Shown here: positions 5,505-60,836 of the stretch, piece by piece | Layout of the letters: each line of letters begins with the position of its first letter | Numbering within the stretch: position 1 is the stretch's first letter | DNA from: Acidimicrobiia bacterium | Lineage (GTDB): Bacteria > Actinomycetota > Acidimicrobiia > Spongiisociales > ZC4RG35 | Direction of reading: 5' to 3' | Assembly (NCBI GenBank): GCA_050742015.1 | Contig: JBOGEV010000118.1 | Span: 3,962 to 67,961 of the forward strand | DNA: 64,000 nt | Made by a program: the position numbers and the translations under genes | The notes under the pieces: model-generated | Told to the model about the DNA's origin: nothing | Databases searched by the model: none | The model's input: only the letters and a program-made list of their open reading frames with translations

Positions 5505-6281
5505 TTAGAGCGGCCCGGATATCCCGCCATCCTTGCGCACCCGCCAGAAATGGACGGCGAGGAAGAGCACGAGGATGAACGGCAACGCCAGCACGTGCAG
5601 GACATAGAAGCGGAGCAGGGTGGCGCCGGAGACCTCCACTCCGGCGAGGAGGGCGAACTTGACCTGGCTGCCGACGACGGGGACGAAGCCGGCCATGTTG
5701 GTTCCGACCGTCACCGCCCACAGCGCAAGCTGGTCCCAGGGGAGGAGATATCCGGAGAAAGAGAGGAGCAGGGTCAGGAACAGGAGCACCACGCCGACCA
5801 CCCAGTTGAACTCCCGGGGCGGCTTGTACGCGCCGTGATAGAAGACCCGGCTCATGTGCAGGAACACCGAGAGCACCATCAGATGGGCCCCCCATCGGTG
5901 CATGTTCCGTACCAGAGACCCGAAGGCAACGTTGGTGGACAGAGCCTCGATGTCCGCATAGGCCGTCTCCGCCGACGGCGTGTAATAGAACATGAGGAAG
6001 ATCCCGGTGATGGTCAGCAGGATGAACAGGAAGAAGCTGAGCCCACCCAGACACAGGGTGTAGGAGAGCCTGACCCCGTGCCGCTTTACCTTCACCGGGT
6101 GGAGGTGATAGAGCACGTTGTTCATCACCACATACGACCGGTTCCTCGGGCTGTCCGAGTAACCCTTCTTGAAGGGCGAGCCGGGACGCAGGATCGATTC
6201 CGCGACCTGCGAGCCCCAGAGTTTCTCGTTGGCCTCTTTGATTCTGTCCTTGAGTCCGGTCTTACCGTTGCCGTTGGCCAA
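5505..6281 (-). CDS. Cytochrome b6-type protein (N-terminal, haem-binding half of cytochrome b)
   Basis: 258 aa, 4 TM. Conserved His pairs in [12 protein letters not shown] and [22 protein letters not shown]. Stops where b6-type proteins stop. Confidence 0.9.
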
Positions 6282-10853: not shown

Positions 10854-11102
10854 TCACACCCGGCGCAGTGCCCGTCGCAATGATGCCCGATCGATCCGAC
10901 CCTCGGCGACCACGTCATCGCCGGGCCCGAGAAGCACCGGGATCCGCATTCCGTAGTCCCTGATCAACACGTCATCGGTGTCGATATCGACTTCTTCCAG
11001 GGTCCCGCCCCGTCGTCGAATCGCCCGTTCTACCAGGGGACGAGCCTCATCACAGAGATGGCATCCGGGTCGGGTGAAAAATTTGAAGGCTAAATGTTTC
11101 AA
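10854..11102 (-). CDS. Glutaredoxin-like small thiol-disulfide protein (DUF836-type)
   Basis: 82 aa. FTRPGCHLCDEA CxxC motif in a thioredoxin-fold context. TTG start. Confidence 0.75.
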   Translation of the reverse strand: MKHLAFKFFTRPGCHLCDEARPLVERAIRRRGGTLEEVDIDTDDVLIRDYGMRIPVLLGPGDDVVAEGRIDRASLRRALRRV

Positions 11103-11245
11103 GTAACCACTCTGGGTGACCGATAATGGAGGCGCATGCAGGAAGGAGGGTCAACCGTTCCCCTCATACCAAGGGCACGTTCGTCCAAGGTGTGAACGGA
11201 TAGCCTCCCAGCCCGCCCCACGGTACGGAACTCTCCTTCGTGTAG

Positions 11246-11281
11246 ATGAGGCCCCCGCCCAGCGGGGGCCTCATCATTTTT
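11246..11281 (+). terminator. Intrinsic-terminator-like hairpin with T-tract on the + strand
   Basis: ATGAGGCCCCCG / CGGGGGCCTCAT 12-bp perfect stem with a 5-nt loop, followed by CATTTTT. No annotated + strand gene ends here. Confidence 0.5.
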
Positions 11282-11376
11282 CGCACCGTCCTCAGGGTCT
11301 GCCATCGTGGGCCCCATGCGACCCGCCACAGCCATAGTCCTGGTGATCCTCTTGGTGATCATCGCCGTGGCCGGGA

Positions 11377-12210
11377 TCATCCAGCTGGTGTCGATCCTCT
11401 CCCAGTGAGGGTGACCGCCACCCCCGACGTCAAGTTCAGTTCCTCGTCGGCCGCACCGTCCCTAACGGCAATGGCGATCAGCCCCACTGAGTCGACATGG
11501 ATCAGTGGCTCGCCGGAGTCGACGTCGGAGTAGGCGGTCGCCCAGGGAATCGTGTGCAGGGTTGCCCCCACCTTCACCGTCAGCGTCGATCCGGGGGCGA
11601 GGCCGACGGCAGCGAGATCGTCAGGCCCGATGTTGGTCTGAACGTTCCCGAAGCTATCCACCCACCATGCCTCCCCCGTCACCACATTCCCTTCGGTCTC
11701 GGGAAGGGGGAGGAGCAGCGGCTGCACCGATCCCGGGCCCAGCTCGGCGCCGAGATCGAGGATCGACGCCTCGCCCGAGGCGAGCAGCCCGGCGGCCGGA
11801 GCAAACACATCACGGCCATGGAACGTCTCCCCAGGAGATGGGATTCTCGCCTCCGGATTGTCGATGGAGACGATGACGGTGGCCCCACCCACCATCGCCA
11901 CCGCCGGGGAGAGGACACCGTTGTCGGGACCGACGAAGTATCCCCATTCGGTTTCCAGGGCCAGGGCCCTGCGCTCCGATCCGACGCCGGGGTCCACCAC
12001 CACCAGGGCCACTCCTTCGGGTAGGTACTGGATGGCCCGGGTCAGGGCCAGGGCGGCCGCCCGCACGTCGCCCCGTGGTGTCCCGTGCCCGACGTCGATG
12101 ACCCGGGACTCCGGTGACATCTTGGACAGCACCCCGTGCACCACCCCGACGAACTCGTCGGCGAGTCCGAAGTCGGAGAGGAAACTGATGGGGAGTGCGT
12201 TCTGCGGCAT
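11377..12210 (-). CDS. S-adenosyl-L-methionine hydroxide adenosyltransferase family protein (DUF62)
   Basis: 277 aa. FLSDFGLADEFVGVVHGV, VVVDPGVGSERR and FHGRDVFAPAAG blocks typical of the family. Confidence 0.85.
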   Translation of the reverse strand: MPQNALPISFLSDFGLADEFVGVVHGVLSKMSPESRVIDVGHGTPRGDVRAAALALTRAIQYLPEGVALVVVDPGVGSERRALALETEWGYFVGPDNGVLSPAVAMVGGATVIVSIDNPEARIPSPGETFHGRDVFAPAAGLLASGEASILDLGAELGPGSVQPLLLPLPETEGNVVTGEAWWVDSFGNVQTNIGPDDLAAVGLAPGSTLTVKVGATLHTIPWATAYSDVDSGEPLIHVDSVGLIAIAVRDGAADEELNLTSGVAVTLTGRGSTPAG

Positions 12211-12265
12211 GGGTGGGGCGTCGGCCGGACACGGTAGACAGCGTGGTCCGACTTATATTGCCGCG

Positions 12266-13147
12266 ATGAACGAGGCCAGCCACGACGCCATTGCCCGGGA
12301 GGTGTCGCGGGCCAAGGTCGCGATGCTGATGGGGAGCGTCGACACCGGAAAGACCACCCTCGCCCTGCAGGCGGCCCGTCTCGCTCTCGGCGCCGGTCGG
12401 ACCGTGGCGATCGTCGATGCCGACGTGGGAAACTCGACCGTCGGCCCCCCGGCCTGCGTCGGGCTGAAGGTCTTGCGAACCCCCGAGGACATCGAGACCG
12501 TGCGCATCCCTGACCGACTCCACTTCGTCGGCACGATCACTCCGGCCCGGCTCGTCCTGCAACAGGTGGTTGCCACCGTGGCCATGGTGGACCAGGCCCG
12601 TGAGCTGGCAGACCTGGTGATCCTGGACACGACTGCTGTGGTCTCCGGGGTGGCCGGGGAGACATTGAAATACCACAAGGCCGAGCTCTGCCGGCCCGAC
12701 ACGGTGGTGGCCTTGCAACGAGGCGGAGAAATGGAGCCGGTCGTGGGGATGTTGCGACGTTTCCTCGGTCTCGATGTGACCGTCTCCCCGACCGATCCCA
12801 ATGTGATGCCCCTCTCCCCCGATGAGAGGGCGCAGAGACGCACCGAGGCCTTCGCCCGCGCACTGGCCCCGCCCCTCGACCGCTGGAAGGTCAGGCCGAC
12901 CGTGTTCGCCCCCACCCTGCCCATGGGCCTCAACCTGGGACGTCTCGACGACGTCCTGGTAGGAGTCCAGGACGAAGGAGGGGGGTGTCTCGGGCTCGGC
13001 ATCCTCAGCAACGAAGACGATGGGCTCCGTGTGATGACCAACACCGGGGAAGGGATGAAGGGCCTGCGTCTCGGCTCGATGCGACTCGACCCCGGGACCC
13101 TGGAATCGAGTGTGATCAGTCTGCGCGAGGTCATGTTCGGGATCTGA
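12266..13147 (+). CDS. Clp1/Grc3-like P-loop polynucleotide kinase family protein
   Basis: Internal ATG of track ORF 11858..13147; 293 aa. GSVDTGKTT Walker A, then VAIVDADVGNSTVGPPACVGL and LVILDTTAVVSG...PDTVVALQ blocks as in archaeal/eukaryotic Clp1. Confidence 0.7.
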   Translation: MNEASHDAIAREVSRAKVAMLMGSVDTGKTTLALQAARLALGAGRTVAIVDADVGNSTVGPPACVGLKVLRTPEDIETVRIPDRLHFVGTITPARLVLQQVVATVAMVDQARELADLVILDTTAVVSGVAGETLKYHKAELCRPDTVVALQRGGEMEPVVGMLRRFLGLDVTVSPTDPNVMPLSPDERAQRRTEAFARALAPPLDRWKVRPTVFAPTLPMGLNLGRLDDVLVGVQDEGGGCLGLGILSNEDDGLRVMTNTGEGMKGLRLGSMRLDPGTLESSVISLREVMFGI

Positions 13148-13234
13148 GCTCAGCGTTCTACGTTTACGTAGGTGGGTCAAGGAGCCCAACCAGCGACCTA
13201 AAGGGGTTTTGGCCACGCGTCGATAAATAGATCG

Positions 13235-13927
13235 ATGCTGGGGAAGCGACGATGGCTCTTGGTGCTGGTCGGGGTCCTGGTGACCGCCGGCGTGTCCGTG
13301 GCTGCCGCCGCCGACTCCGGCACCGAGAGCGAATTCCTCTCCCTGATCAACTCGACCCGGGCCAACAACGGGCTGGGGTCCCTTCAGGTCGACGGAGGGC
13401 TTCGGGCTCACGCCCGGAATCACACCCAAGCGATGATCGAATCCGGCGGCATCTACCACTCCAGTGACGGCGAGCTCTCGGCCGCGGCCGGAAGTGGCTG
13501 GTCCCGGGTCGGAGAGAACGTGGGACGGGGTCAGGACCCCTCGTCCCTGCACAGCGCCTTCATGGCCTCGCCCGGTCACCAAGCCAACATCCTCGGTGAC
13601 TACAACTACGTGGGGATCGGCACCGGGAGCGCCGACGGCTATCTCTATGTCACCGTCGTGTTCATGAAGAAGGGCGAAACCGCTCCGCCCCCCACCGAGG
13701 CCCCACCCCCGACCGAGGCCCCGCCCCCGGCCTCAGACTCCCCCGGCACGACGCCCGCTCCCGCCCCTGATCCAAGCGAGCCGGGGCCGGCATCGACCAC
13801 CACGACCTCCACAACCACCACGACCCCGCCCCCGACCACGACCCTGATCGTGCCCCCCGACAAGGCGGTCGTCGCCGGTCAGTCGTGCCTCGAGGCAACT
13901 CGATACTCGAGCATCTGTCAGAACTGA
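13235..13927 (+). CDS. Secreted CAP/SCP (PR-1-like) domain protein with Pro/Thr-rich tail
   Basis: 230 aa. Signal peptide, then a CAP block (GENVGRGQ, SPGHQANIL, YVGIGT), then PPPTEAPPPTEAPPP and poly-T segments. Confidence 0.85.
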   Translation: MLGKRRWLLVLVGVLVTAGVSVAAAADSGTESEFLSLINSTRANNGLGSLQVDGGLRAHARNHTQAMIESGGIYHSSDGELSAAAGSGWSRVGENVGRGQDPSSLHSAFMASPGHQANILGDYNYVGIGTGSADGYLYVTVVFMKKGETAPPPTEAPPPTEAPPPASDSPGTTPAPAPDPSEPGPASTTTTSTTTTTPPPTTTLIVPPDKAVVAGQSCLEATRYSSICQN

Positions 13928-30074: not shown

Positions 30075-33000
30075 GTGAGCGTGTCTCGGGAGGGGAATCC
30101 CAAATTGGGAACAGAGTCCGCGCCTGGCGCGGCTTTTCGCGACAATTCCGATCCGGGTGATGAGGGTTCCGACGCGCGGTTGCGGGTCTTCGTCTCATCC
30201 ACTCTGGGCGAGCTGAGATCGGAGCGGGAAGCCGCCAACTCGGCGATCAAGAGCCTCCGTCTGGTGCCGACCGGCGTCGATCTCGGAGGCCAGTTCGAAA
30301 AAGCCGTCGCCTCACCGGAAACCTCTGACGTCTTCGTGGGCATCTACTGGCAGTCCTACGGATGGGTTGGCGAGGACAGTCCCCGGTCGGACTTGGAGAG
30401 GGACTACGACCACAGCACCGGCCTGCCCAGGCTGATCTACGTCAAGGGCCCGGCCGGAGATCGAGACGAGGGTCTGCAACGGCTGCTCTCGCGCATCGGC
30501 CAGGACGAGCACGCGGCGATGCGCTCCTTCGAATCACCAGGTGAGCTTGCCGAGATGATGGTCGAGGACCTCGCCGGCCTGATGACCGACCACTTTCCGG
30601 CATTCGACGACCAGCCGGGATCTCTTCCGCTGGGGACCCTGACCTTCATGTTCGGGGACATCGTCGGCTCGACCTCCCTCGTCGAGCGTCTCCAGGGCGA
30701 CTACGCAGAGGTCCTCTCCGGCTATCACGAGACGGTCGCCGAGGCCAATCGGAGCAATGGCGGGACCGTCCTCGATCTCGAGGGGGAGCGCGTCTTCAGC
30801 GTCTTCCAGGATGCCTTCGAAGGGTTGAGCGCCGCCGTCGAGATCCAGACGTCGCTCGCCGAACGGGAGTGGCCCCAGGCCGCCCAGATCCGGTCCCGAC
30901 TCGGACTGCACACCGGGACCGCCCGCCTCGGATCGGGCGGGTACGTGGGCCTCGACGTCCATCGCGCATCGCGGGTCGCCGCCACGGGTCATGGAGGGCA
31001 GATAGTGATCTCGGCGCCGGTCAGGGAATTGGTGGAGGGCCGCGTCGAAGACGTCGGATGGCGCATCAAGGAACTGGGCTCGTTCGCCCTCAAGGGCCTG
31101 TCCCGGGCGGAGAAGCTGTTCCAGGTCGAAGCTCCCGGGCTCGAGACCGACTTCCCACCCCCCCGGGCCCGCTCGACGATCCGGGTTCGGCTGCCCTCAT
31201 CACAGGCCAGTCTCGTCGGCCGGGAGAAGGAATTGGCCGAGTTGGTCGACATGCTGGGACAGGCCCACGTGCGCCTAGGCACCATCATCGGACCGGGTGG
31301 CATCGGAAAGACTCGCCTCGCCCTTTCGGCGGCTGAAGTGCTCTCCCCTTCGTTTCCCGACGGTGTGTACTTCGTCAACCTGGCCCCGCTCACCGAGGCG
31401 AGCCAGGTCCTCCATGCCATTGGTGACGCCGCCGGCATCCCCATCGAGGGCGATCCGATCGACGCCCTGTCCAGCGAGTTCCAGGACCAGCAGGTCCTCC
31501 TCCTGATCGACAACTTCGAGCATGTGGTCGCCGCCGGTCCGGACATCGGGGAGCTCCTCGGCCGCAGTCCGGGGCTGAAGGCCCTGGCCACCAGCCGGGT
31601 GCCTCTACGGATCATGAGCGAATACGAATATCCCCTCGAACCGCTCGGGCTGCCCCCCATCGGGTCGGATCGGGTGGAGTCGGTCTCCACATCCGACGCG
31701 GTGCGCCTGTTCATCGAACGTGCCCTCGCCGTGATCCCTGGTTTCTCGATCGACGAGGAGAACGCCTCCCCGGTCGCTTCGATCGTTCGCATCGTGGACG
31801 GGCTTCCCCTCGCCATTGAATTGGCCGCCGCTCGTCTGCGCATGCTGAGCCCATGGGCGCTGTCGGAGCGCCTCACCAAGTCGCTCGACGCTCTCGGCGC
31901 CGGTGCCGCCGATGTCCCCAGCCGCCAGCGCACCCTGGAAGCAGCCATCGACTGGAGCTATCAGCTCTTGACCCGTGAGGAGCAGACCCTGTTCGCCCGG
32001 CTCTGCGTGTTCCAAGGGGGCTTCACGGTCGAGTCGGCGCAGGAGGTCGCGGTTGAAGACGGGGACGCGGTCGACCAGTTGATGGTCCTGGTGGAGAACA
32101 GCCTGGTTCTGCCCGCTCAGGGTGGGGATGGCCGGCTCCGGATGCTGGCGCCGATTCGGGAGTTCGGTCTCCGTCGTCTCCACGAGTCGGGCGAGTACGA
32201 CTGGCTCAAAGACCGACATGCCGGCTATTACGTCCGTCTGGCGGAATCGGTCCTGGACGACCTTCGAGGTGTCAAGCAGGCCGCCGTTGTGGAGCGATTG
32301 GCGGCCGACTGGAACAACATCGACATCGCGGCCGATTGGCTCCTGCAGCAAGGCGACCACGACTCGCTGATCCGGATGGCCTACGGGATGTGGGTTTTTC
32401 TCTGGGTCGGGAACCACATGAAGGACGGTGCTCGATGGCTGGGCGGGGTCACCGCCTACGACGAGATGGATCCGGTGCTCGCCGGGCGCTGCTGGTGGCT
32501 ACGGGGCGGGATCCTCTATGAGATGGGCCAATACGGGAAGTCGAAGCAGGCCATCGACACGGCCCTGGAGATCCTGGAGAGCAACGGAGACATCGACTGC
32601 CACAACTGGGCCGACTTCGTCTCCGCGCTCCTGCTCCCGGCCTTCGACGGCGATCAGGGTGAGGTGTGGCGAAGGGTGGAGGTCTCACTCGCCAGGTTCC
32701 GTGGCCTCGGGGACCGCTGGGGCGAGGGGTACGCCCTGATCGCACTCGGCATATTGGCCGGGTCGACGGGCGATCACGAGACTGCCGAGAAGTATCAGCT
32801 CGAGACTCGCGCCCTGGGCGCCGAGCTCGCCAACGGTGCGCTCATCGGGCTAGCCGAGGCGCAGCTCGGGTTCTCCTACGTTGCCTCAGGGAGGTTCGAC
32901 GAGGCGCGTGACGCTCTGCGGAGGTCGTTCGAGGTCTTCCGGGGCATGAACTACCGGGAGGGCATGTGCTACGCCCTCGAGGCGACAGCTTCGCTTTCGT

Positions 33001-33233
33001 TCGGACAGGGGCGGGCGGAGATGGGCATGATCGCCTTGGGCGCCGCCGAGGACGTCCGCACCAGGATCGGCCTCCATCCCTGGCCCCTGATCAGCTGGGT
33101 GTTCGACTCGCTGACCTCTCTGGCCGATTCCGTCGACGACCCGGCGTTACAGGCCGCCAGGCACGAAGGCCGCCAGATGAACCCCTTCGACGCCGCCGCA
33201 CTGGTCCTCGACGCCGCCCCGGTCCCGGCCTGA
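30075..33233 (+). CDS. STAND NTPase: DUF4062 + class III cyclase-homology domain + NB-ARC ATPase + TPR array
   Basis: 1052 aa. RVFVSSTLGELRSEREA...YWQSYGW (DUF4062-like). FMFGDIVGSTS...GLHTGTA...VHRASRV (cyclase). GPGGIGKTRLA Walker A and VLLLIDNFEH Walker B. C-terminal ~350 aa of TPR-like helices; no HTH. Confidence 0.8.
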   Translation: MSVSREGNPKLGTESAPGAAFRDNSDPGDEGSDARLRVFVSSTLGELRSEREAANSAIKSLRLVPTGVDLGGQFEKAVASPETSDVFVGIYWQSYGWVGEDSPRSDLERDYDHSTGLPRLIYVKGPAGDRDEGLQRLLSRIGQDEHAAMRSFESPGELAEMMVEDLAGLMTDHFPAFDDQPGSLPLGTLTFMFGDIVGSTSLVERLQGDYAEVLSGYHETVAEANRSNGGTVLDLEGERVFSVFQDAFEGLSAAVEIQTSLAEREWPQAAQIRSRLGLHTGTARLGSGGYVGLDVHRASRVAATGHGGQIVISAPVRELVEGRVEDVGWRIKELGSFALKGLSRAEKLFQVEAPGLETDFPPPRARSTIRVRLPSSQASLVGREKELAELVDMLGQAHVRLGTIIGPGGIGKTRLALSAAEVLSPSFPDGVYFVNLAPLTEASQVLHAIGDAAGIPIEGDPIDALSSEFQDQQVLLLIDNFEHVVAAGPDIGELLGRSPGLKALATSRVPLRIMSEYEYPLEPLGLPPIGSDRVESVSTSDAVRLFIERALAVIPGFSIDEENASPVASIVRIVDGLPLAIELAAARLRMLSPWALSERLTKSLDALGAGAADVPSRQRTLEAAIDWSYQLLTREEQTLFARLCVFQGGFTVESAQEVAVEDGDAVDQLMVLVENSLVLPAQGGDGRLRMLAPIREFGLRRLHESGEYDWLKDRHAGYYVRLAESVLDDLRGVKQAAVVERLAADWNNIDIAADWLLQQGDHDSLIRMAYGMWVFLWVGNHMKDGARWLGGVTAYDEMDPVLAGRCWWLRGGILYEMGQYGKSKQAIDTALEILESNGDIDCHNWADFVSALLLPAFDGDQGEVWRRVEVSLARFRGLGDRWGEGYALIALGILAGSTGDHETAEKYQLETRALGAELANGALIGLAEAQLGFSYVASGRFDEARDALRRSFEVFRGMNYREGMCYALEATASLSFGQGRAEMGMIALGAAEDVRTRIGLHPWPLISWVFDSLTSLADSVDDPALQAARHEGRQMNPFDAAALVLDAAPVPA

Positions 33234-34280
33234 TCACATTGTGGCCAGAGCAACGTTGGTGAGGGTGGGCCCGTAGCTCTCGCGGAGGAGTAGCTTGCGT
33301 TCCAGCGCTTCGATGACGGCCGAGGCGAAATCGACCTCGTGGAGGGAGGAGGCGCTGCCCAGCCCTCCCGGGCTGAACACGTTCGCTTCCATCAGCTTGT
33401 CTCCTACGATGTCGAGCCCGACCAGGAACATCCCGTCCTGGATCAGCTTGGGTCGGGCCATCCTCACCACGTCCAGCATCTCGTCGGTCACCTTCACCTT
33501 CTCGGCCTTCCCTCCGACGTGCATATTCGATCGGACATCGTCGTCCTCGTTGACCCGTCGAAAAGCGGCGACCTTCCCGTTCACCTCCAACGGCACCCCG
33601 TTCATCACGAAGAGGCGGACGTCGCCCTTTTCCGCCTCCTTCAGGTACTCCTGGACCACCACATAGCCGTCTCGGGTGATGGTCTCGATGATCTGGTTCA
33701 GGTTTTGACCCTTCTTCCCATCGATGAGGAACACCCCTTGTCCCCCCGACCCCTGCAGTGGCTTGAGCACCGCCCGGCCGCCGAGCTCGCTCACGAACTC
33801 TTTTATGTCGGCATCGGTCCGCGAGATGAGAGTGCGCGGCCGTACTTCCTCGGGAAAGTGCTGGAAGTAGGTCTTGTTGATCGCATCAGCGAGATGCACC
33901 GGGTCGTTGACCACCAACACCCCGGCCGCTGCCGCCAGCTGGCCGAAGAGCACACCGGATGCCTGGGCCCAGGGCCGCTCGGTGGCATCCTCAGCGGGGT
34001 CGTTGCGCAACAACAGGACGTCCAACTCGTCGAGGGTGATCAGCTCAGGCTCCGTCTCCGGGCTCTGGATGTCCTCGAGGAAGCTCTTCAGCGAGCGATA
34101 CGTCTTGTCCTGAGGAGCGCGTGCTCTCGCCCGCACTTCACCGCTGGCGATGTTGGAGAGGTCACCGACACCCATCATCCAGACGTCATGACCCCGCTTC
34201 CGGGCGGCGAGGGCCAGGCGAGTCGTGCTGTACTGGGGGTGTTCGGTCGCGATTTCGTTGACTACCAGCCCGAGTCTCAT
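33234..34280 (-). CDS. Glutathione-synthetase-like (GshB/RimK-type) ATP-grasp ligase
   Basis: 348 aa. VVNDP, LKPLQGSGGQGVF, VVQEYL and RSNMHVGG ATP-grasp blocks. Its stop abuts the STAND gene's stop. Confidence 0.8.
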   Translation of the reverse strand: MRLGLVVNEIATEHPQYSTTRLALAARKRGHDVWMMGVGDLSNIASGEVRARARAPQDKTYRSLKSFLEDIQSPETEPELITLDELDVLLLRNDPAEDATERPWAQASGVLFGQLAAAAGVLVVNDPVHLADAINKTYFQHFPEEVRPRTLISRTDADIKEFVSELGGRAVLKPLQGSGGQGVFLIDGKKGQNLNQIIETITRDGYVVVQEYLKEAEKGDVRLFVMNGVPLEVNGKVAAFRRVNEDDDVRSNMHVGGKAEKVKVTDEMLDVVRMARPKLIQDGMFLVGLDIVGDKLMEANVFSPGGLGSASSLHEVDFASAVIEALERKLLLRESYGPTLTNVALATM

Positions 34281-38786: not shown

Positions 38787-39581
38787 TTGGCCAGATGCTG
38801 GCCACACCTGGCCCGTGAAGAGGCCGTGACCGCAACGAAGGGCGAATACGCCCACGAGCGCCGCAAGCACTGGCTCAAGATCCACGCCGGTGTCTATCTG
38901 GTGGTGAACGGCTTCTTCGTGGGGACCTGGCTCATGGTCCAAGGGATCCCCGACATCGAGGATCCGAATATCGAGATGTTCTTCCCCGGATGGCTTCTCC
39001 TGATCTGGGGCGTGTGCCTCGGCTTCCACGCCGTGGTTGTCTGGGCCCGTCGCCCTCAGGTCCGCCCACTGGCGATGCGGAGCGGCGGGCAGGCGGGGCG
39101 TGTGGTGAGCACCGTCCTCTTCACCGACATCGTCGGCTCGACCGAGTTGGCGGCCGGCCTCGGCGATCGCCGGTGGGCGGAAGTACTCGATCTCCATGAC
39201 CGGACGTCCCGACGAGTCGTCGTCGACAATGGCGGCCAGGTGGTGAAACAGACCGGTGACGGCACACTCGCCACCTTCGACACCCCTAACCAGGCAATAG
39301 CCGCCGCGTGGGCGCTGCGCGAGGAGTTGGGCCAACAAGACCTCCTGATCAGGGCCGGGCTCCACTCGGGAGAGATCGAGCTGAGACGCAGAGATGTTGG
39401 TGGCATCGCAGTGCACATCGCATCCCGGGTGATGGGGGCCGCAGCACCGGGAGAGATCCTGGTGTCGAGGACCGTCCGCGACCTCGTCGGGGGTTCCAAG
39501 GTCGAGTTCTCCGACCGGGGCGCCAGCCCCCTCAGAGGGCTGGAAGGCGAGTGGGAGCTCTACGCTGTGGACGCCCTGTGA
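38787..39581 (+). CDS. Membrane-anchored (2TM) class III adenylate/guanylate cyclase
   Basis: 264 aa. N-terminal 2-TM module (WLKIHAGVYLVVNGFFVGTWL...). VLFTDIVGST, QTGDGTLATF and GLHSGEIE motifs. Confidence 0.85.
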   Translation: MARCWPHLAREEAVTATKGEYAHERRKHWLKIHAGVYLVVNGFFVGTWLMVQGIPDIEDPNIEMFFPGWLLLIWGVCLGFHAVVVWARRPQVRPLAMRSGGQAGRVVSTVLFTDIVGSTELAAGLGDRRWAEVLDLHDRTSRRVVVDNGGQVVKQTGDGTLATFDTPNQAIAAAWALREELGQQDLLIRAGLHSGEIELRRRDVGGIAVHIASRVMGAAAPGEILVSRTVRDLVGGSKVEFSDRGASPLRGLEGEWELYAVDAL

Positions 39582-40200: not shown

Positions 40201-40272
40201 TGGTGGTAGTTGGCAATTGGACTGGCCCCGGACCTTTCACGGGGCGCTCCCCGTGCGAGGAGGCACGTTTCT

Positions 40273-43200
40273 ATGAGTAAAGGCCTGCGGATCACCCGTC
40301 GCTTCACCGAGGCCGGCAAGGACCCCTACGACCAGATCGAATGGTCGCGTCGCGACTCTCGGATCACCAACCCCGACGGCTCGGTGGTGTTCGAGATGAC
40401 CGACGCCGAGATCCCGGCCGGGTGGTCGCAGGTCGCCTCGGACATCATGGTGTCGAAGTACTTCCGCAAGGCGGGTGTCCCCCAGCTCGACGAAGAGGGC
40501 AACCCGATCGTCGATGATAACGGCGACCCTGTGCTCGGTCCGGAGCGCTCAGCTCGACAAGTGTTCGACCGTCTCGCCGGCACCTGGCGGCATTGGGGTG
40601 AGAAGGAGGGTTACTTCGCCTCCACCGACGATGCGACGGTCTTCGAGGACGAGCTCAAGTACATGCTGGCCAACCAGATGGCCGCCCCCAACTCCCCTCA
40701 GTGGTTCAACACCGGGCTGAATCACGCCTACGGGCTGACCGGGCCTGCCCAGGGCTTCTGGTACGTCGACGGCGCCGACGGCGAGCTCAAGGCCTCTCCC
40801 GACTCCTACAGCCGCCCGGCCCCCCACGCCTGTTTCATCCTCAGCGTCCGTGATGATCTGGTGAATCCCGGCGGGATCATGGACCTCTGGGTGCGCGAGG
40901 CAAGGATCTTCAAGTTTGGCTCGGGGGCCGGGTCCAACTTCAGCCAGATCCGCGGTGAGAACGAGCGGCTTTCCGGTGGTGGTAAGTCGTCGGGAGTGAT
41001 GTCGTTCCTCAAGATCGGCGACCGCGCCGCTGGCGCAATCAAAAGTGGAGGCACGACGAGACGCGCCGCCAAGATGGTCATCCTCGACGTCGATCATCCA
41101 GATATCGAGAAGTTCATCGACTGGAAGAAGGTCGAGGAGGACAAGGCCCGGGTCCTGATCAACCATGGTGGATTCCCCGCCGACTTCAACGGTGACGCCT
41201 ATGCCACGGTGTCCGGTCAGAACTCGAACAACTCGGTCCGGGTCAGCAACGAGTTCATCGAGACGGTCGTGGACGACGGAGACTGGGAGTTGAAGAACCG
41301 GACCGACGGCACGGTCCGCAAGACGGTCAAGGCCCGTGACCTGTGGAACCGGATCGCCGAAGCGGCATGGGCCTGCGCCGATCCCGGTCTCCAGTTCGAC
41401 ACCACGGTCAACGAGTGGCACACCAGCCCCGCCGGTGGCCGGATCAACGGATCCAACCCTTGTAGCGAGTACATGTTCCTCGACGACACGGCGTGCAACC
41501 TTGCGTCGATCAACCTCGTCAGGTTCCACGACGACCAGACCGGTGTCTTCGACATCGAGGGCTACCAGCACGCGGTCCGTCTGTGGACGATCGTTCTCGA
41601 GATCTCGGTGGCGATGGCCCACTTCCCATCGCCGGAGATCGCCCAGGGCTCCTACGACTATCGCACTCTCGGACTCGGCTACGCCAACCTCGGATCCCTG
41701 CTGATGCGTCAGGGGATCGCCTACGACTCCGACGAGGGCCGCGCCATCAGCGGTGCTTTGACCGCGATCCTCACCGGGTACTCGTATGCCACGTCGGCTG
41801 AGATCGCCGGGGTGGTCGGGCCGTTCCCCCGCTTCGCCGAGAACCGGGAGTCGATGCTGCGGGTGATCCGCAACCACCGTCGCGCCGCCTACGGCGACAC
41901 CGACTATGAGGGTGTCAGCCACAAGGTGATGGCGATCGACGCCGATCTCTGCCCCGACGATGTGCTGGCCGCGGCCCGCACCTCGTGGGACCTCGCCCTC
42001 GCCCAGGGGGAGCAGCACGGCTACCGGAACGCCCAGTCCAGCGTCATCGCGCCTACAGGAACAATCGGGTTGCTGATGGACTGTGACACCACCGGGGTGG
42101 AGCCCGATTTCGCCCTGGTGAAGTTCAAGAAGCTGGCCGGCGGCGGCTACTTCAAGATCGCCAACCAGTCGGTCGCCCCGGCGCTGCGGCACCTTGGCTA
42201 CGACGAGGGCCAGATCAAGGATGTGGTCGAGTACATCGTGGGAACCAGCTCCATCGATGGGACTCCCCACATCAACCGGGAGACACTCACCGCCAAGGGC
42301 TTCGACGACGAGGACCTGGCCAAGTTGGAGAAGGCTCTGCCGGCGGTGTTCGAGTTGAAGCACGCCTTCAACGTGTTCACCTTCGGCGAGGATGCGTTGC
42401 AGCGGCTCGGCTTCGGAGTCGACGAGTACACCGGGTGGGATTTCAACCTGCTCAAGGCGCTCGGGTTCTCCTCGAAGGAGATCAACGAGGCCAACGATCA
42501 CATCTGCGGCCGGCAGACCATCGAAGGTGCCCCGCACCTGAAGGACGAGCATCTATCAGTCTTCGACACCGCCAACAAGAACGGGAAGATCGGCGAGCGG
42601 TTCATCCACCACTACGGCCACATCAAGATGATGGCCGCGGCCCAGCCGTTCATCTCGGGGGCGATCTCGAAGACGATCAACATGCCCAACGAGATAACGA
42701 TCGAGGACATCGAAGAGTCCTATCGGATGTCCTGGGAGTGGGGTCTCAAGGCAATGGCCCTCTATCGGGACGGATCGAAGGCGGCCCAGCCGCTCAACTC
42801 CACCTCCGACGAGGGTGAGGAGAGCGAGGATGAGGCGCCTGGGATCACTGCTGCGGTCGAGGCGGAGAAGGCGATCCACTGGGGCAACCTGCCGGCGGGG
42901 ATCTCCCCCACCCAGGCCTACCACCAGGGAATGAAGCCACCCCGGTTCCTGCTCCCGGCCCGTCGCAACGGGTACAACCAGGAGGCGAGGATCGGCGGGC
43001 ACAAGGTGTTTCTCCGCACCGGCGAGTACGACGACGGGACCCTGGGCGAGATCTTCATCGACCTGGCGAAAGAAGGGGCGACCTTGAAGGGAATCCTCTC
43101 CTGCTTCGCCATCGCCGTCTCCAAGGGCCTCCAGTACGGGGTGCCGCTGGAGGAGTTCGTCGACACCTTCACCTTCCAGACCTTCGAGCCGAGGGGCATG

Positions 43201-43683
43201 GTCGAGGGCCATCCCAACATCAAGATGGCAAACTCGATCGTGGACTACGTGTTCCGGGCCCTCGGTGTGGAGTACCTGGAGCGTGACGAGCTGGCACAAG
43301 TTCCGCCCGACCGTGAGGGTGAGCTCCCCGAGCCCGCCTCGGGCATCGCCATCGAGGCCGGGATCCAGCTCGACCTGACCGACGCCGTTGCCGAGTCCGA
43401 CGTTGATGCGGTCAGGGCAGCCGCGGCCTTCGTGGATGCGCCGACATCCGTTTCTCCTTCCGTAGGGGGAGGTACCGCCGGAGGCGGCGGAGGCGTAGCG
43501 GCCCGTACCCTCCAGGTCGAGGAGAAGGTGACCGTGGTCGCAGGATCGGCGGCGATGGTGGACACGGCCTTGAAGGAGAACATGGGCGACGCCCCGGTCT
43601 GCTCCAACTGCGGGCACATGACCATCCGCAACGGCAGCTGCTACGTCTGCCTCACCTGCGGGGACACGACCGGGTGTAGCTGA
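40273..43683 (+). CDS. nrdJ: Class II (adenosylcobalamin-dependent) ribonucleotide reductase
   Basis: ATG 40273 after GAGGAGG; 1136 aa. Active-site NPCSEY and a C-terminal CxxC...CxxC zinc-ribbon tail (CSNCGHMTIRNGSCYVCLTCG). Confidence 0.95.
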   Translation: MSKGLRITRRFTEAGKDPYDQIEWSRRDSRITNPDGSVVFEMTDAEIPAGWSQVASDIMVSKYFRKAGVPQLDEEGNPIVDDNGDPVLGPERSARQVFDRLAGTWRHWGEKEGYFASTDDATVFEDELKYMLANQMAAPNSPQWFNTGLNHAYGLTGPAQGFWYVDGADGELKASPDSYSRPAPHACFILSVRDDLVNPGGIMDLWVREARIFKFGSGAGSNFSQIRGENERLSGGGKSSGVMSFLKIGDRAAGAIKSGGTTRRAAKMVILDVDHPDIEKFIDWKKVEEDKARVLINHGGFPADFNGDAYATVSGQNSNNSVRVSNEFIETVVDDGDWELKNRTDGTVRKTVKARDLWNRIAEAAWACADPGLQFDTTVNEWHTSPAGGRINGSNPCSEYMFLDDTACNLASINLVRFHDDQTGVFDIEGYQHAVRLWTIVLEISVAMAHFPSPEIAQGSYDYRTLGLGYANLGSLLMRQGIAYDSDEGRAISGALTAILTGYSYATSAEIAGVVGPFPRFAENRESMLRVIRNHRRAAYGDTDYEGVSHKVMAIDADLCPDDVLAAARTSWDLALAQGEQHGYRNAQSSVIAPTGTIGLLMDCDTTGVEPDFALVKFKKLAGGGYFKIANQSVAPALRHLGYDEGQIKDVVEYIVGTSSIDGTPHINRETLTAKGFDDEDLAKLEKALPAVFELKHAFNVFTFGEDALQRLGFGVDEYTGWDFNLLKALGFSSKEINEANDHICGRQTIEGAPHLKDEHLSVFDTANKNGKIGERFIHHYGHIKMMAAAQPFISGAISKTINMPNEITIEDIEESYRMSWEWGLKAMALYRDGSKAAQPLNSTSDEGEESEDEAPGITAAVEAEKAIHWGNLPAGISPTQAYHQGMKPPRFLLPARRNGYNQEARIGGHKVFLRTGEYDDGTLGEIFIDLAKEGATLKGILSCFAIAVSKGLQYGVPLEEFVDTFTFQTFEPRGMVEGHPNIKMANSIVDYVFRALGVEYLERDELAQVPPDREGELPEPASGIAIEAGIQLDLTDAVAESDVDAVRAAAAFVDAPTSVSPSVGGGTAGGGGGVAARTLQVEEKVTVVAGSAAMVDTALKENMGDAPVCSNCGHMTIRNGSCYVCLTCGDTTGCS

Positions 43684-55884: not shown

Positions 55885-57285
55885 TCAGGACTCGCAGCCC
55901 AGACCGTCGTTGTCGTTGCCGTCGAATCCGTGCGGATCGGGGGGCAGCACCTGGAACCGCCGATGAGAGATCTCACCACAATCGAGATCGGGAGGGGCGG
56001 GCGGGATGCAGACGTCGGGATAGCTGGGGTCACAGTCGGTCGGCCCCACGATGGGATTGATCGGGGCCAACGTCGTGACCGGGGACTGGGTGGTGGTCGT
56101 CACCCCGTCGTAGTCGTAGGTCGTGTGCGTGTTGCCGTTGGGGTCGAGAAGGAACGCGGTATCGCCGTCGTTGTTCCAGACAGCAGCGCCGATGCTGCAC
56201 CAGAAGAGGTCAGTGCCGAAGTCGTCTCCACAGCCAGTGCGAATCGTCACCGACTCACCGGGGGCGAGGATGAACGCAGTCGGGAACGAGTAGCGATTGC
56301 CGGCCGACTCGTCCTTGATCCCCCATCCGCTGAGGTCGACCACGTTGTCTCCGTCGTTGCGGATCTGGATCCACTCCTCATTCAGGTTGTCGTTGTCGTT
56401 CCCCGCCGCGTCGAACTCCAGCGCGATGATGGACACCACGGCATCGGCCCGAGGCCCACAGGCTTCGGCTGCCCACAGCCCGAGCCCGGCATCCTTGGCC
56501 TCGGATTGGGCCACCTCGAAACGGTCGGCCATGGCCGTGTCCGGCGGGTAGCGCCGGGCGATGGCCGCTCCCCGACGGACCGACTCCTCGTTGACCGACA
56601 ACCCGCCGACCCATAGGTAGCGGAGCAGCCGGTCGAACTGGTCGAGATCGGATACGTCGCTGGTCACTCCGACTCTCGAGCCGACCGGAGCCAACGCGGC
56701 CAGTGTCAGCGCGGCCTCATCCGAGAAGCATTCGTTCGATTCCGGGGTGTTGATCCCTATCAGCCTGACTTCGGCCACCGATCCGTCGGCGAATGCGACA
56801 TCGAGAGTATCGCCGTCGGTGATCGACCTCACGGTCACCAATTCCGCCCCGGTCGGAACCGCTCCACCCGGATCTCCGGACGGTCCGGCCGCAGGGGCCG
56901 CCAGCAGGACCTCAGCTTGCGGGAAGGGCGGTTCGGCCACCACGGTGGTTGGTGCGGGCGGGGTGGTGGTCGATGGGATCGAAGTCGACGTGGTTGCGAG
57001 CCCGGTCGAGGTCGAGGTGGCGATCGCTCCGGTCGTCGTCGGGCTCGAGGACAGGGTCGTGTCGGGCCCGGCCAGAGTCCCGGGCTCGGCGGACTCCCCC
57101 GACCCCGGGAGGGCCACGACGACGACCAGGATTGCCGCCGGGACCCACGCGGGAGACACTGGGCGGGCCGGTCTGGGTAGGAGACTGCCCGGCGTATTCT
57201 TGTGCTCAAGCCATGCACCGCGGCGTTCGCGCCACTCGCCCCATGAAGCGGAAGACCAGAACCTGACCCATGAGGGAGCCCTCAT
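55885..57285 (-). CDS. Secreted thermonuclease (SNase) + lamin-tail domain + excalibur-like Ca-binding tail
   Basis: 466 aa. DGDTLDV...VRLIGINTPE...RLLRYLW (SNase). NEEWIQIRNDG..VDLSGW (LTD). C-terminal DGNDNDGLGCE. Confidence 0.8.
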   Translation of the reverse strand: MRAPSWVRFWSSASWGEWRERRGAWLEHKNTPGSLLPRPARPVSPAWVPAAILVVVVALPGSGESAEPGTLAGPDTTLSSSPTTTGAIATSTSTGLATTSTSIPSTTTPPAPTTVVAEPPFPQAEVLLAAPAAGPSGDPGGAVPTGAELVTVRSITDGDTLDVAFADGSVAEVRLIGINTPESNECFSDEAALTLAALAPVGSRVGVTSDVSDLDQFDRLLRYLWVGGLSVNEESVRRGAAIARRYPPDTAMADRFEVAQSEAKDAGLGLWAAEACGPRADAVVSIIALEFDAAGNDNDNLNEEWIQIRNDGDNVVDLSGWGIKDESAGNRYSFPTAFILAPGESVTIRTGCGDDFGTDLFWCSIGAAVWNNDGDTAFLLDPNGNTHTTYDYDGVTTTTQSPVTTLAPINPIVGPTDCDPSYPDVCIPPAPPDLDCGEISHRRFQVLPPDPHGFDGNDNDGLGCES

Positions 57286-58959: not shown

Positions 58960-59661
58960 GTGGCACCCCGCACCACCCCCGCCGGCCAGCGCATCCTCCT
59001 CGTCGACGACGAGCCGCGGATATGCGAGGTGGTGGCCAACTACCTCCGCCGCGATGGGTACGAGGTCGCGACTGCCGTCGACGGTGAAACCGCACGCAGC
59101 GGTCTACTCGAGTTCAAACCCGACCTGGTCGTCCTCGACCTGATGCTGCCCGCCGTCTCCGGCTTCGAGTTGCTCACCGAGATACGCCGGGATGGCGACC
59201 TACCCGTCATCCTGCTCACCGCCCGAGCCGAGGAGTCGGATCGAGTTGCCGGCCTCGAGCTCGGCGCCGACGACTACGTGGTGAAGCCGTTCTCCCCTCG
59301 CGAGCTCGTGGCCCGGGTTCGCACCGTTCTCCGCAGGGTCCACCCCAAGCCCGGGGACGGTCCGGTCGAATTCGACGGAATCATCGTCGACTCCGCTCGC
59401 CGAGCCGTATCCGTTGACGGAGAGTCGGTGGAATTGACGGCGAAGGAGTTCGATCTCCTCTCCTTTCTCGTAGCCCACCCGCTCCAGGTGTTCAGCCGTG
59501 GCGAGTTGTTGAAGAGCGTCTGGGGATCGTCGGCCGAGTGGCAGGACCCGGCCACGGTCACGGTCCATGTCCGACGCATCCGCCAGAAGATCGAACCAGA
59601 CCCTCAGACCCCTCGCTGGGTACAGACCGTCTGGGGGGTCGGATACAGGCTCGGCGCATGA
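58960..59661 (+). CDS. OmpR/PhoB-family response regulator
   Basis: 233 aa. ILLVDDE...DLVVLDLMLP receiver domain and a C-terminal winged helix (VWGVGYRL). Confidence 0.9.
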   Translation: MAPRTTPAGQRILLVDDEPRICEVVANYLRRDGYEVATAVDGETARSGLLEFKPDLVVLDLMLPAVSGFELLTEIRRDGDLPVILLTARAEESDRVAGLELGADDYVVKPFSPRELVARVRTVLRRVHPKPGDGPVEFDGIIVDSARRAVSVDGESVELTAKEFDLLSFLVAHPLQVFSRGELLKSVWGSSAEWQDPATVTVHVRRIRQKIEPDPQTPRWVQTVWGVGYRLGA

Positions 59662-60836
59662 AACGAATCGTCTGGGCGGTGATCCTGGTGCTGGCCATGG
59701 TGCTCCTGGTCGCCGAGCTGACCATGGATGTCACGCCCGGCGAGCGAACCGAGCTCTACGTCATCTTCGGTCTGATGGCAGTTGCCACCTTCGTAGCCGC
59801 GATCGTCTCGTTGCGGTTGGCGAGCCGGTTTCACTCGCTGCGTACCAGTCTGATCGTTGTCGCCTTCGCCGCGGTGGCCGTGACCGGCGCCGCGGTAGCT
59901 GTGGCCGCCCTGACGATGTTCATCGACGAACACGACCTGACTCTCGTGCTGGTCGCGATCGGTCTCGGCGTGGGCCTGGGAGGCACCATCGCCGGCGCCG
60001 TTGCCCGACCCCTCACCAGTGATCTCGCTGCCATCTCTCGCACCGCAGAGCGGGTCGGCGCCGGTGACCTGAGCGTCAGGACCGGTATCGAGCGGACGGA
60101 CGAGTTGGGGCGGGCCGCCGAGGCCCTCGACCAGATGATCGAGAGGTTGGAGACATCAGAGAACGAGCGGCGAAACCTGCTCTCGGCGATCGGGCACGAC
60201 CTGCGTACTCCCATGGGGTCGATGCAGGCAGCCGTCGAGGCACTGCAGGATGGTGTCGCGCCGGACCCGCCGGCCTACTTGCGCGGCCTATCCCTCGACC
60301 TCGATCATCTGCGGCACCTGGTCGATGACCTCTTCTTGCTGGCGCGGATCGATGCTGGACGGTTGGAGCTCTCGCCGGTGGGAGTCGACCTGGCGGAGCT
60401 GGCCGATGAGGCCGTGGAAGCCGTGACCCCGGCTGCAGCCCAGCGGAACGTGGGCCTCAAGGTCGAGACGACGGGCCATGTCGGGGTGAATGGCGACCCC
60501 GCTGCCCTAGGTCGGGTTCTTCGGAACCTGCTGACGAATGCGATCCGTCACAGCCCGGAGTCTGGTGAGGTGACCGTCATAGTGAGCCGCAACGGGACCG
60601 ACGCGGTCACCAGCGTCATCGATCAGGGCCCTGGATTCCCCGACGAGCTCGGATCGAAGGTCTTCGAGCGATTCACGAGAGCCGACGATTCGCGAAATCG
60701 AGAGTCCGGCGGCGCCGGACTCGGTCTCGCCATCGCCATGAGCATCGTCGAAGCCCACGGCGGCGTCATCGCGATCGGGCGTGGGCCTGGTGGCCATGTC
60801 CGCTTCTCGGTGCCGCTGGGGCAGCCGCCTTCCTGA
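59658..60836 (+). CDS. Sensor histidine kinase (2 TM, HAMP, HisKA, HATPase_c)
   Basis: ATG 59658 (ATGA overlap). H-box SAIGHDLRTP, N-box LLTNAIRHS, G-boxes DQGPGF / GGAGLGLAI. Confidence 0.9.
   Translation: MKRIVWAVILVLAMVLLVAELTMDVTPGERTELYVIFGLMAVATFVAAIVSLRLASRFHSLRTSLIVVAFAAVAVTGAAVAVAALTMFIDEHDLTLVLVAIGLGVGLGGTIAGAVARPLTSDLAAISRTAERVGAGDLSVRTGIERTDELGRAAEALDQMIERLETSENERRNLLSAIGHDLRTPMGSMQAAVEALQDGVAPDPPAYLRGLSLDLDHLRHLVDDLFLLARIDAGRLELSPVGVDLAELADEAVEAVTPAAAQRNVGLKVETTGHVGVNGDPAALGRVLRNLLTNAIRHSPESGEVTVIVSRNGTDAVTSVIDQGPGFPDELGSKVFERFTRADDSRNRESGGAGLGLAIAMSIVEAHGGVIAIGRGPGGHVRFSVPLGQPPS

Follow-up and report, generated by a model that had tools for sequence, protein, structure and literature searches.

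A gene at positions 30075-33233 (+) of a 64,000-nucleotide stretch of an Acidimicrobiia bacterium genome (assembly GCA_050742015.1, contig JBOGEV010000118.1, positions 3,962 to 67,961; the whole stretch is hereafter called the window) encodes a 1052-aa protein that is read here, with confidence and doubt about evenly balanced, as a bacterial switch resembling receptors with nucleotide-binding and leucine-rich repeat regions (NLR) and belonging to the signal transduction ATPases that have numerous domains (STAND). Its AfsR-type chassis, consisting of an NTPase module and an arm of tetratricopeptide repeats (TPR), would carry two tandem N-terminal enzymes, a DUF4062 domain and a class III cyclase-homology domain, and its trigger would be endogenous or environmental. 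This reading rests on domain identities, homology to AfsR, KpSwz and Ma1120, residue conservation, swapping of the N-terminal heads and gene contexts, all of which were computed in the present analysis.

The open reading frame (ORF) extends from a GTG at 30075 to a TGA at 33231-33233 and includes 1052 codons on the + strand. Because more than 100 full-length homologues with 39-91% identity had the same architecture, the ORF is, judged by its sequence, a genuine conserved gene and not a chance ORF; the assignment of the whole gene was based on the ORF list, a codon check, these homologues and a structure model. The homologues originated mostly from metagenome-assembled genomes of Acidimicrobiia and in some cases from Gaiellaceae, and in the databases they were automatically named either "DUF4062 domain-containing protein" or "predicted ATPase/class 3 adenylate cyclase". 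An exact-sequence look-up of the protein itself gave no match in the collection searched. The original prediction, made from the nucleotide letters of the window, had described a 1052-aa ORF with DUF4062, cyclase, NB-ARC and TPR domains in this order and with no output helix-turn-helix (HTH) domain; the coordinates proved exact, the domain order was recovered with Pfam and the quoted motifs (RVFVSS, FMFGDIVGST, GLHTGTA, VHRASRV, GPGGIGKTRLA and VLLLIDNFEH) were all present in the protein.

The DUF4062 domain (aa 37-173; 30183..30593, +) is best read as a predicted TIR-like NAD(P)+ glycohydrolase in the effector position. It was recognised by Pfam (PF13271, aa 37-113, 36.0 bits against a gathering score of 24.7, with 66-67 bits in relatives), by a match of the N-terminal family profile to the KpSwz structure 10wc in the PDB (E 3e-5; hhalign probability 95%) and by an AlphaFold2 model with a predicted local distance difference test (pLDDT) score of 83.7. 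The comparison of this model with the TIR fold, recommended in the original prediction, revealed five strands and five helices and placed TIR domains among weak Foldseek matches: the E-values were weak, flavodoxin-like folds came first and the best TIR domain was that of RRS1 (TM 0.59), the searched library being older than the release of the structures of KpSwz (10wc, 11cq and 11cv) and of the TEP1 TIR-like domain (11gz). DUF4062 has been described as a TIR-like NAD+ glycohydrolase whose activity requires oligomerisation; in KpSwz (Swarozyc) a phage portal protein activates the enzyme, NAD+ is depleted and E97 is needed, human TEP1 is an active NADase, and DUF4062 adjoins a NACHT NTPase in TEP1, NWD1, NWD2 and NPHP3 (10.64898/2026.05.01.722283). 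In the related Eva01 (Evangelion), F11 and the E87-Y88 pair are required (10.64898/2026.06.25.731849). Taken together with the KpSwz profile match, this 2026 work substantiated the earlier suggestion that DUF4062 acts as an effector.

The position of the catalytic Glu of the characterised NADases (KpSwz E97, Eva01 E87) corresponds to Asp110 of the query (codon GAC, 30402..30404, +), which is followed by Tyr111. When truncated fragments were scanned with the Pfam DUF4062 profile, profile position 78 mapped to E97 of KpSwz, E110 of the homologue P0056 and D110 of the query; in the same mapping position 73 fell on a Ser in KpSwz and on S105 in both P0056 and the query, and position 76 on E95 of KpSwz and on E108 of the other two. 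This register agrees with the E87-Y88 pair of Eva01, matched by [E/D]110-Y111, and with the homologue L009, which has A108 and yet E110. A different register, with E108 of the query as the catalytic Glu, was obtained when the family profile was first aligned to KpSwz with HMMER and was rejected, because its posterior probability was only ~0.6 and it was contradicted by hhalign (which left E97 in a gap), by the Pfam profile mapping, by the Eva01 pair and by L009. The aromatic residue of strand A (F11 in Eva01) is matched by F39 in RVFVSS; in the alignment of 103 family sequences, from which all residue column counts given here were taken, this column held 87 F and 9 Y.

A flexible linker (aa 174-187; 30594..30635, +; pLDDT <50 at aa 175-181) connects the TIR-like domain with the class III cyclase-homology domain (aa 188-352; 30636..31130, +), which was identified by Pfam (Guanylate_cyc, PF00211, aa 188-346, 23.1 bits against a gathering score of 21.9), by its match to Ma1120, by Foldseek and by the column counts. 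Ma1120 was the nearest solved cyclase (E 5e-14 when the query sequence alone was searched, 2e-33 when the family profile was used), Rv1900c/LipJ was matched with E 8e-7 by the single sequence, and the cyclase model superposed on both with TM 0.90-0.93 and a root-mean-square deviation of ~2 A (Foldseek). The key residues, all on the + strand, are D195 (30657-30659), D234, E238 (30786-30788), G289, H296 (30960-30962) and R300 (30972-30974). The first metal-binding residue D195 was Asp in 101 and Glu in 2 of the 103 sequences, the second metal position 238 was always acidic (66 Asp, 37 Glu), and the transition-state Arg300 was invariant; the position of the transition-state Asn was occupied by His296 in all 103 sequences, in a register confirmed against 3mr7, and the following Arg297 was equally invariant. 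With D195, H296, R297 and R300 conserved and position 238 always acidic, the cyclase pocket appears to be under selection, and such strong conservation argues for a function. Many cyclase-only relatives among the matches listed also had the motif YVG[LIM][DE]VHRAAR in common; VHRAAR is present in L023, L041 and L055.

The substrate of class III cyclases is selected by a pair of residues, Lys/Asp for ATP and, for GTP, a Glu paired with Cys, Ser, Thr, Gly or the like. In the family the position of the specificity Lys is Asp234 (95/103) and that of the specificity Asp is Gly289 (86/103), the nearest analogue being the pair Glu/Gly in Cya2, a guanylate cyclase (PMC4215837). From a Glu at the second metal site and a His in place of the transition-state Asn the original prediction had deduced that the cyclase activity may be altered. 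Both residues were indeed found, but Glu238 is a subclade trait only (37/103, the other 66 sequences having Asp), and the invariant His296 gives no evidence of altered activity, because Rv1900c, an active cyclase, has His at the Asn position (PMC4886424) and the active Ma1120 has Ala164 there, whose replacement by Asn lowered the activity (PMC4215837); a second cyclase encoded in the window has His at this position as well. This second gene, ~5.5 kb downstream at 38787-39581 (+), encodes 264 aa with a predicted membrane segment and a class III cyclase domain that has the canonical Lys/Asp pair and the motif GIAVHIASRV and is 33% identical to the cyclase domain of the target protein (E 2e-15); in the counterpart neighbourhood of L001 a LipJ-like hydrolase-cyclase fusion is present.

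The two N-terminal domains are joined to the STAND module by a conserved linker that leads into the NTPase (aa 353-383, FPPPRAR...LP..L.GRE; 31131..31223, +), recognised by its conservation in the family; in Geodermatophilus sabuli the same lead-in directly follows DUF4062. The nucleotide-binding domain (aa 384-520; 31224..31634, +), with Walker A GPGGIGKT at 31290-31313 (+) and Walker B LLLIDNFE at 31497-31520 (+), was assigned from AAA_22 (28.3 bits, threshold 27), AAA_16 (30 bits, just under threshold), the AfsR match and the model. NB-ARC reached only 11.6 bits in this copy, and the label is acceptable because relatives pass the threshold (P0056 with 24.6 bits, L023 with 36.5 bits) and because the NTPase module gave Foldseek matches to plant NB-ARC resistosomes and TIR-NLRs such as RPP1, Roq1 and WRR4A, to CED-4 and to Apaf-1. 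The key Walker residues G406, G409, G411, K412, L475 and D479 were invariant (103/103), E482 was present in 100/103 and the TSR motif was invariant or nearly so. The helical (aa 534-607) and winged-helix (aa 616-705) domains of the module (31674..32189, +; HTH_77, WHD and model) were the best conserved region among the orthologues, with an identity of 0.84. The remainder (aa 708-1046; 32196..33212, +) consists of TPR-like repeats of ~20 helices, presumed to be the sensor and autoinhibitory arm and recognised by Pfam (TPR_12, TPR_2 and TPR_8 over threshold), AfsR, Foldseek and an all-helical model with pLDDT >90; the top Foldseek match of the NTPase and TPR part was PH0952, in which a STAND module is joined to a TPR sensor (E 5e-13). 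The family profile matched AfsR (8k60, 8jke) with E 4e-33 over positions 346-951, that is ~600 residues reaching into the TPR region; the NCBIfam AfsR model also matched with E 5e-15, far below its own cut-off.

The same chassis was found with different modules at its N- or C-terminus. DUF4062 alone precedes it in Geodermatophilus sabuli DSM 46844 (L073) and in L060, both of which have the catalytic Glu. A cyclase alone is present in L023 from Acidimicrobiaceae, L041 from Terracoccus, L055 from Ensifer and many Chloroflexota, among the matches listed in a GTDB scan for relatives, which were mostly distant cyclase-only proteins. In Mycobacterium asiaticum (L065) the cyclase is combined with a C-terminal GerE/LuxR domain, in AfsR the head is a Streptomyces antibiotic regulatory protein (SARP) region, and the DUF4062-cyclase tandem characterises the family described here, including L009. 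The kinship with mycobacterial cyclase-ATPase-LuxR proteins pointed out in the original prediction was thus confirmed by L065, in which Guanylate_cyc, NB-ARC and the C-terminal GerE domain occur on the same chassis. The idea that this protein gained DUF4062 in place of an HTH did not survive: one AfsR-like chassis bears N-termini with DUF4062 only, with the cyclase only or with both in tandem, and the N-terminal modules are, as far as sequences can tell, interchangeable outputs, of which the tandem is one combination among several.

AfsR, the characterised protein with the closest chassis, activates transcription, and HTH_77 was precomputed by Pfam in most homologues (P0056 having a WHD_ROQ1-like match at 634-708), both of which would suit a transcription factor acting via this winged helix or via a separately encoded HTH partner, as would the position of one distant homologue, whose gene immediately follows an AfsR-like gene of the SARP-STAND type. 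Such a role is nevertheless very improbable. HTH_77 is the winged helix (aa 616-705) inside the NTPase module, integral to every STAND module, and not a C-terminal output; no HTH, GerE, Trans_reg_C or BTAD domain was found by Pfam in the 1052-aa protein and it has no SARP or other DNA-binding domain, though its regulator relatives have one (GerE in L065); and no HTH gene recurred as a neighbour across the contexts. One outcome that the original prediction would have counted as its refutation, namely a housekeeping regulator that is common and has an HTH partner in a conserved operon, was therefore realised only in its first part, since the family is common and its context housekeeping-like and no conserved HTH partner was found.

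Two members of the family have another STAND gene directly upstream on the same strand. In L007 (6700-9915) this gene encodes an AfsR-like SARP-BTAD-AAA_16 protein of 1071 aa next to a distant family member, and in L089 (7310-9757) an effector-less AAA_22-HTH_77-TPR protein of 815 aa. These adjacent paralogues hint at either tandem duplication or paired STAND proteins.

According to the preferred reading of the protein as an NLR-like switch, the TPR arm and the NTPase module would keep it monomeric and autoinhibited at rest. Binding of a ligand to the TPR arm and of ATP to the Walker site would serve as the trigger, upon which the protein would open and self-associate; self-association would cluster the N-terminal domains and their proximity would turn on both enzymes, with NAD+ cleavage, cyclic nucleotide synthesis or both as the output. 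The active sites of class III cyclases form across a dimer interface. Since TIR-type NADases likewise need oligomers, both enzymes may be switched by proximity. A precedent for autoinhibition is AfsR, in which the nucleotide-binding oligomerisation domain (NOD) and the TPR inhibit the N-terminal SARP, and ATP binding relieves the inhibition (PMC10936776). The output is likewise N-terminal in TEP1-like proteins and plant TIR-NLRs. The earlier notion that a ligand triggers an oligomerising switch whose output is N-terminal was in this way supported as a general model, in which activation by oligomerisation, the activity of either enzyme, the nature of the ligand and the role in physiology are inferred.

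Several points weigh against this reading. The catalytic Glu of the NADases is Asp in this copy, the family column at position 110 containing 87 Glu, 15 Asp (including the query) and 1 Gln among 103 sequences. The Q/W/E motif (W51-E52 in Eva01) appears in the query as Q73-F74-E75, in columns that are unconserved in the family (R, P and H being the commonest) and in a region modelled with low confidence. In the cyclase, Glu238-Arg239 is found in all close relatives (at least 65% identity) including this copy, and neither the canonical Lys/Asp nor the Glu/Cys specificity pair is present, so that the substrate is not predictable from Asp234 and Gly289; Asp110 and this unusual pair had both been overlooked in the original prediction. 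The Asp110 and Glu238 swaps retain a carboxylate, but either could cripple catalysis, and both outputs of this copy may be weaker or altered compared to most family members. The full-length AlphaFold2 model (40 family sequences) had a mean pLDDT of 85.6 and a predicted template modelling score (pTM) of 0.58, and therefore the domains are confident singly, their mutual arrangement is not, and the model does not speak on autoinhibitory contacts. ATP left the oligomeric state of AfsR unchanged in vitro (PMC10936776), which makes oligomerisation unproven even for the closest characterised chassis. Finally, the characterised bacterial DUF4062 proteins (Swarozyc and Evangelion) are all NAD+-depleting effectors of anti-phage abortive infection.

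The substitutions might instead mean that the two N-terminal domains are pseudo-enzymes, or modules binding NAD+/ADP-ribose and nucleotides or promoting dimerisation, which tune the switch while its output goes via protein-protein contacts. Besides the replacement of the catalytic Glu by Asp110, the pair Glu238-Arg239 in the second metal site and the lack of canonical specificity residues, this alternative is favoured by the low conservation of DUF4062 among orthologues (0.65, the lowest of all domains) and by the fact that, of four human DUF4062 proteins tested, apparently only TEP1 was reported to be NADase-active. Moreover, Asp and Glu at position 110 switch repeatedly among near-identical orthologues (P0008 with Asp and P0004 with Glu are 95.6% identical elsewhere) with no change in conservation, as if the exact acid were immaterial. 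The same comparison can be turned the other way: DUF4062 is conserved alike in the Asp110 and Glu110 groups (0.667 vs 0.661) and its core residues S41, S42, E46, E50, R51, Y91, W92, G96, P118, Y122 and K124 are fully conserved in both, so no decay is apparent in the Asp110 copies, and a relaxation of constraint after the Glu-to-Asp change was rejected on this ground. Furthermore, both substitutions stay carboxylates, the family as a whole mostly has Glu110 (87/103) and Asp238 (66/103), and the invariance or near-invariance of D195, H296, R297 and R300 would be unusual in a dead enzyme. A purely non-catalytic role of the two domains is judged unlikely, and active enzymes on a STAND switch are retained as the preferred interpretation.

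The genomic context bears on the nature of the trigger. In the window the target gene is preceded by genes for an S9 peptidase, an EamA and a DUF6198/YitT-like protein and followed by the convergent gene of a GSH-S-type ATP-grasp protein, by MATCAP/DUF1704 and FGase, and beyond FGase by CAP, a hydrolase and a class II ribonucleotide reductase (RNR). The earlier statement that the gene stands alone was roughly correct, in that the ATP-grasp gene (33234-34280, -) is convergent and abuts the target stop codon, but the adjacent EamA and DUF6198 genes upstream are on the same strand as the target with a gap of 40 bp. The gene order of the window was kept around homologues with 70-76% identity in L001, L002-L004, L090 and L092; a second clade with ~40% identity to the query had its own conserved synteny (L091 and the P0108 locus), and further distant members were situated among metabolic genes. 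No recognisable defence gene was present in any of the 11 neighbourhoods inspected, and the GC content was uniform over the window, which has no compositional island. The TPR region was as conserved among orthologues as the other domains (identity 0.73 vs 0.65-0.84), and between the clades it was the most divergent part (0.32-0.39). Judged by these neighbourhoods, the family looks vertically inherited, in a fixed chromosomal position among housekeeping genes.

These observations bear on the possibility that the protein is an Avs-like single-gene abortive-infection system, in which the TPR arm would sense a phage protein, the STAND module would oligomerise and DUF4062 would deplete NAD+, the cyclase serving as a second effector or a dimerisation aid. 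Such a system would fit the anti-phage role of all characterised bacterial DUF4062 proteins, the order effector-STAND-repeat sensor, which is the layout of Avs and of plant TIR-NLRs, and the occurrence of several divergent clades inside one bacterial class. The PADLOC scan gave no system-level or STAND defence match; it gave PycC (Pycsar cyclase) matches only, which could be counted in favour of defence, but they were partial and weak (<=25 bits, half of the domain covered), were taken as generic cyclase-fold similarity and were rejected as evidence of a Pycsar system. Extensive horizontal transfer has been described as a hallmark of immune STANDs (PMC12803255), while in the present family five genomes with proteins of 70-76% identity have kept the synteny, and a second syntenic group exists. 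The defence reading is weakened by this conserved non-defence synteny, by the lack of a defence gene in the 11 contexts and by a sensor that is not fast-evolving, and it is considered unlikely; the context thus gave no support to the defence candidacy put forward in the original prediction. For the NLR-like switch preferred here, an endogenous or environmental cue of a stress or growth-arrest type is a more likely trigger than a phage protein, given the fixed vertical position among housekeeping genes and the well-conserved sensor.

Several features of the neighbourhoods were observed in addition. Directly downstream of the orthologues in L001-L004 (13232-14482 in L001, 13250-14503 in L002) there are genes of the envelope-stress type encoding PspC, a LiaF-like_C protein and a 63-aa protein, and a LiaI/LiaF-TM gene (13145-13801) follows the 53%-identical homologue in L089; genes of the PspC/LiaF type were not present in the window, L090 and L092, and they could reflect either a functional link or residual synteny. 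A convergent ATP-grasp gene lies downstream in both orthologue groups, although the families differ, being GSH-S/RimK-type in one and ATP-grasp_IQCH/PGM1_C-type in the other (L091, 13059-14528; P0108 locus, 11088-12551), and the recurrence may be a coincidence. In one of the 11 contexts the family member P0056 (45% identity) is divergent from a gene for a 340-aa protein with a cyclic nucleotide-binding domain (L005, 8804-9826, -), which is a possible receptor for the product of the cyclase.

A more specific version of the switch model, proposed with low confidence, is a non-immune, chromosomally fixed NLR in which one activation event leads to both NAD+ cleavage and synthesis of a cyclic nucleotide (possibly a non-canonical one), the two perhaps being coupled, for instance by pairing the cyclic nucleotide signal with a fall in NAD+ so as to enforce dormancy in Acidimicrobiia. 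If this were true, TIR-type NADase effectors would serve endogenous bacterial physiology, beyond phage defence. STAND/NLR switches with TIR-type NADase effectors are central to plant, animal and bacterial immunity, and it was only in 2026 that DUF4062 became known to be an effector of this kind; the family described here puts a DUF4062 effector and a cyclase onto a non-immune AfsR chassis, in a stable position across a class of environmental Actinomycetota. TIR-type NADases on STAND proteins are already known, and cyclases on STAND proteins are known but little studied; no description of or experiment on the DUF4062-cyclase tandem on an AfsR-type chassis, nor any meaningful link between DUF4062 and a cyclase, was found in the papers searched, and the two 2026 preprints (10.64898/2026.05.01.722283 and 10.64898/2026.06.25.731849) do not mention a cyclase or TPR fusion. 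With active enzymes, the protein would represent one receptor governing two enzymatic outputs, a test case for immune-type modules in ordinary bacterial signalling and possibly a cyclase with unusual specificity; with inactive ones, it would be another multidomain STAND protein. The sibling architectures offer natural controls, namely the cultured G. sabuli DSM 46844 for DUF4062 without the cyclase, and Terracoccus and Ensifer for the cyclase without DUF4062, and each part of the protein has a solved structure for reference.

The extreme N-terminus of the protein is a disordered leader (aa 1-33; 30075..30173, +; pLDDT <50), poorly conserved in the family (identity 0.18-0.37). Which start codon is used is ambiguous: translation may in fact begin at the TTG at 30105 (codon 11), which has GGGAGGGG at a suitable distance upstream (30090-30097), and in L092 the DNA sequence of the GTGAGCGTG.CTCGGGAGGGG stretch near the gene start is conserved. 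In a scan for promoters and terminators the sites were no more frequent than in shuffled sequence of this high-GC organism. In the L092 orthologue, on a contig of 658 kb, one extra G (gacgGatggg) divides DUF4062 (a 138-aa gene, 5574-6001) from an 892-aa remainder, which is either an assembly indel or error, or a frameshift marking an incipient pseudogene. A two-gene system, suggested by the 892-aa relatives that seemingly lack DUF4062, was therefore rejected for L092, in which the single extra G splits the gene; the other relatives of ~892 aa (P0035, P0040 and P0042) are located on short contigs of 2.7-4.9 kb.

Elsewhere in the window, the class II (B12-dependent) RNR gene at 40210-43683 (+) encodes 1157 aa with no intein domains, and its syntenic orthologues in L002 (16840-21549) and L090 (16591-21162) encode 1523-1569 aa with Intein_splicing and LAGLIDADG homing endonuclease domains; the difference is an intein presence/absence polymorphism. 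The gene at 55885-57285 (-) encodes a 465-aa protein with staphylococcal-nuclease and lamin-tail domains, probably a secreted or surface nuclease. At 58960-60836 (+) an OmpR-type response regulator and a HAMP/histidine kinase form a pair; the ORF frames overlap, and the kinase probably starts further downstream. A DUF4062-like tblastn match at 59967-60515 (E 0.01) was dismissed as chance, since this region belongs to the HAMP/histidine kinase next to the OmpR-type regulator.

Among known systems, AfsR of Streptomyces coelicolor (8k60, 8jke) has a homologous NTPase and TPR region and the same order of N-terminal effector, NOD and TPR; its effector, however, is a SARP (an OmpR-type winged HTH plus BTAD), in place of which the present protein has TIR-like and cyclase domains and no DNA-binding output. 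The mycobacterial proteins of the Rv0386/Rv1358/Rv2488c type likewise carry a cyclase immediately in front of the shared STAND chassis (35% identity over aa 150-789 in M. asiaticum L065), but they end in a GerE/LuxR HTH (aa 1075-1130 in L065, 59.9 bits), whereas the present protein stops where the HTH would begin and has DUF4062 in front of the cyclase. With Ma1120 of M. avium and Rv1900c/LipJ of M. tuberculosis, both active, its cyclase domain shares the absence of the canonical transition-state Asn (Ala164 and His, respectively); in contrast to the canonical Lys101/Asp157 of Ma1120 it has Asp234/Gly289, with the second metal Asp replaced by Glu in this copy, and, unlike these two stand-alone or hydrolase-fused cyclases, it is fused to a STAND module.

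As a member of the DUF4062 family, with a match to the KpSwz profile and a five-stranded TIR-like model, the protein is related to KpSwz, Eva01, TEP1, NWD1, NWD2 and NPHP3, and in TEP1, NWD1 and NWD2 the domain also precedes a STAND NTPase and takes the place of the effector. It differs from these proteins by the cyclase inserted between DUF4062 and the NTPase, by an NB-ARC/AfsR-type NTPase with TPR instead of NACHT combined with either WD40 repeats or a small AUX domain, by Asp at the catalytic Glu and the unconserved Q/W/E motif, and by its syntenic housekeeping context as opposed to a plasmid or defence island. The combination of a NADase effector, an oligomerisation module and a repeat sensor is that of the plant TIR-NB-ARC-LRR proteins (RPP1, Roq1 and WRR4A; LRR, leucine-rich repeats) and of Avs/bNACHT proteins with TIR effectors; in contrast to them, the present protein has TPR instead of LRR, an additional cyclase and a TIR-like domain of the DUF4062 family and, unlike Avs, is encoded at a locus with no association with mobility or defence islands.

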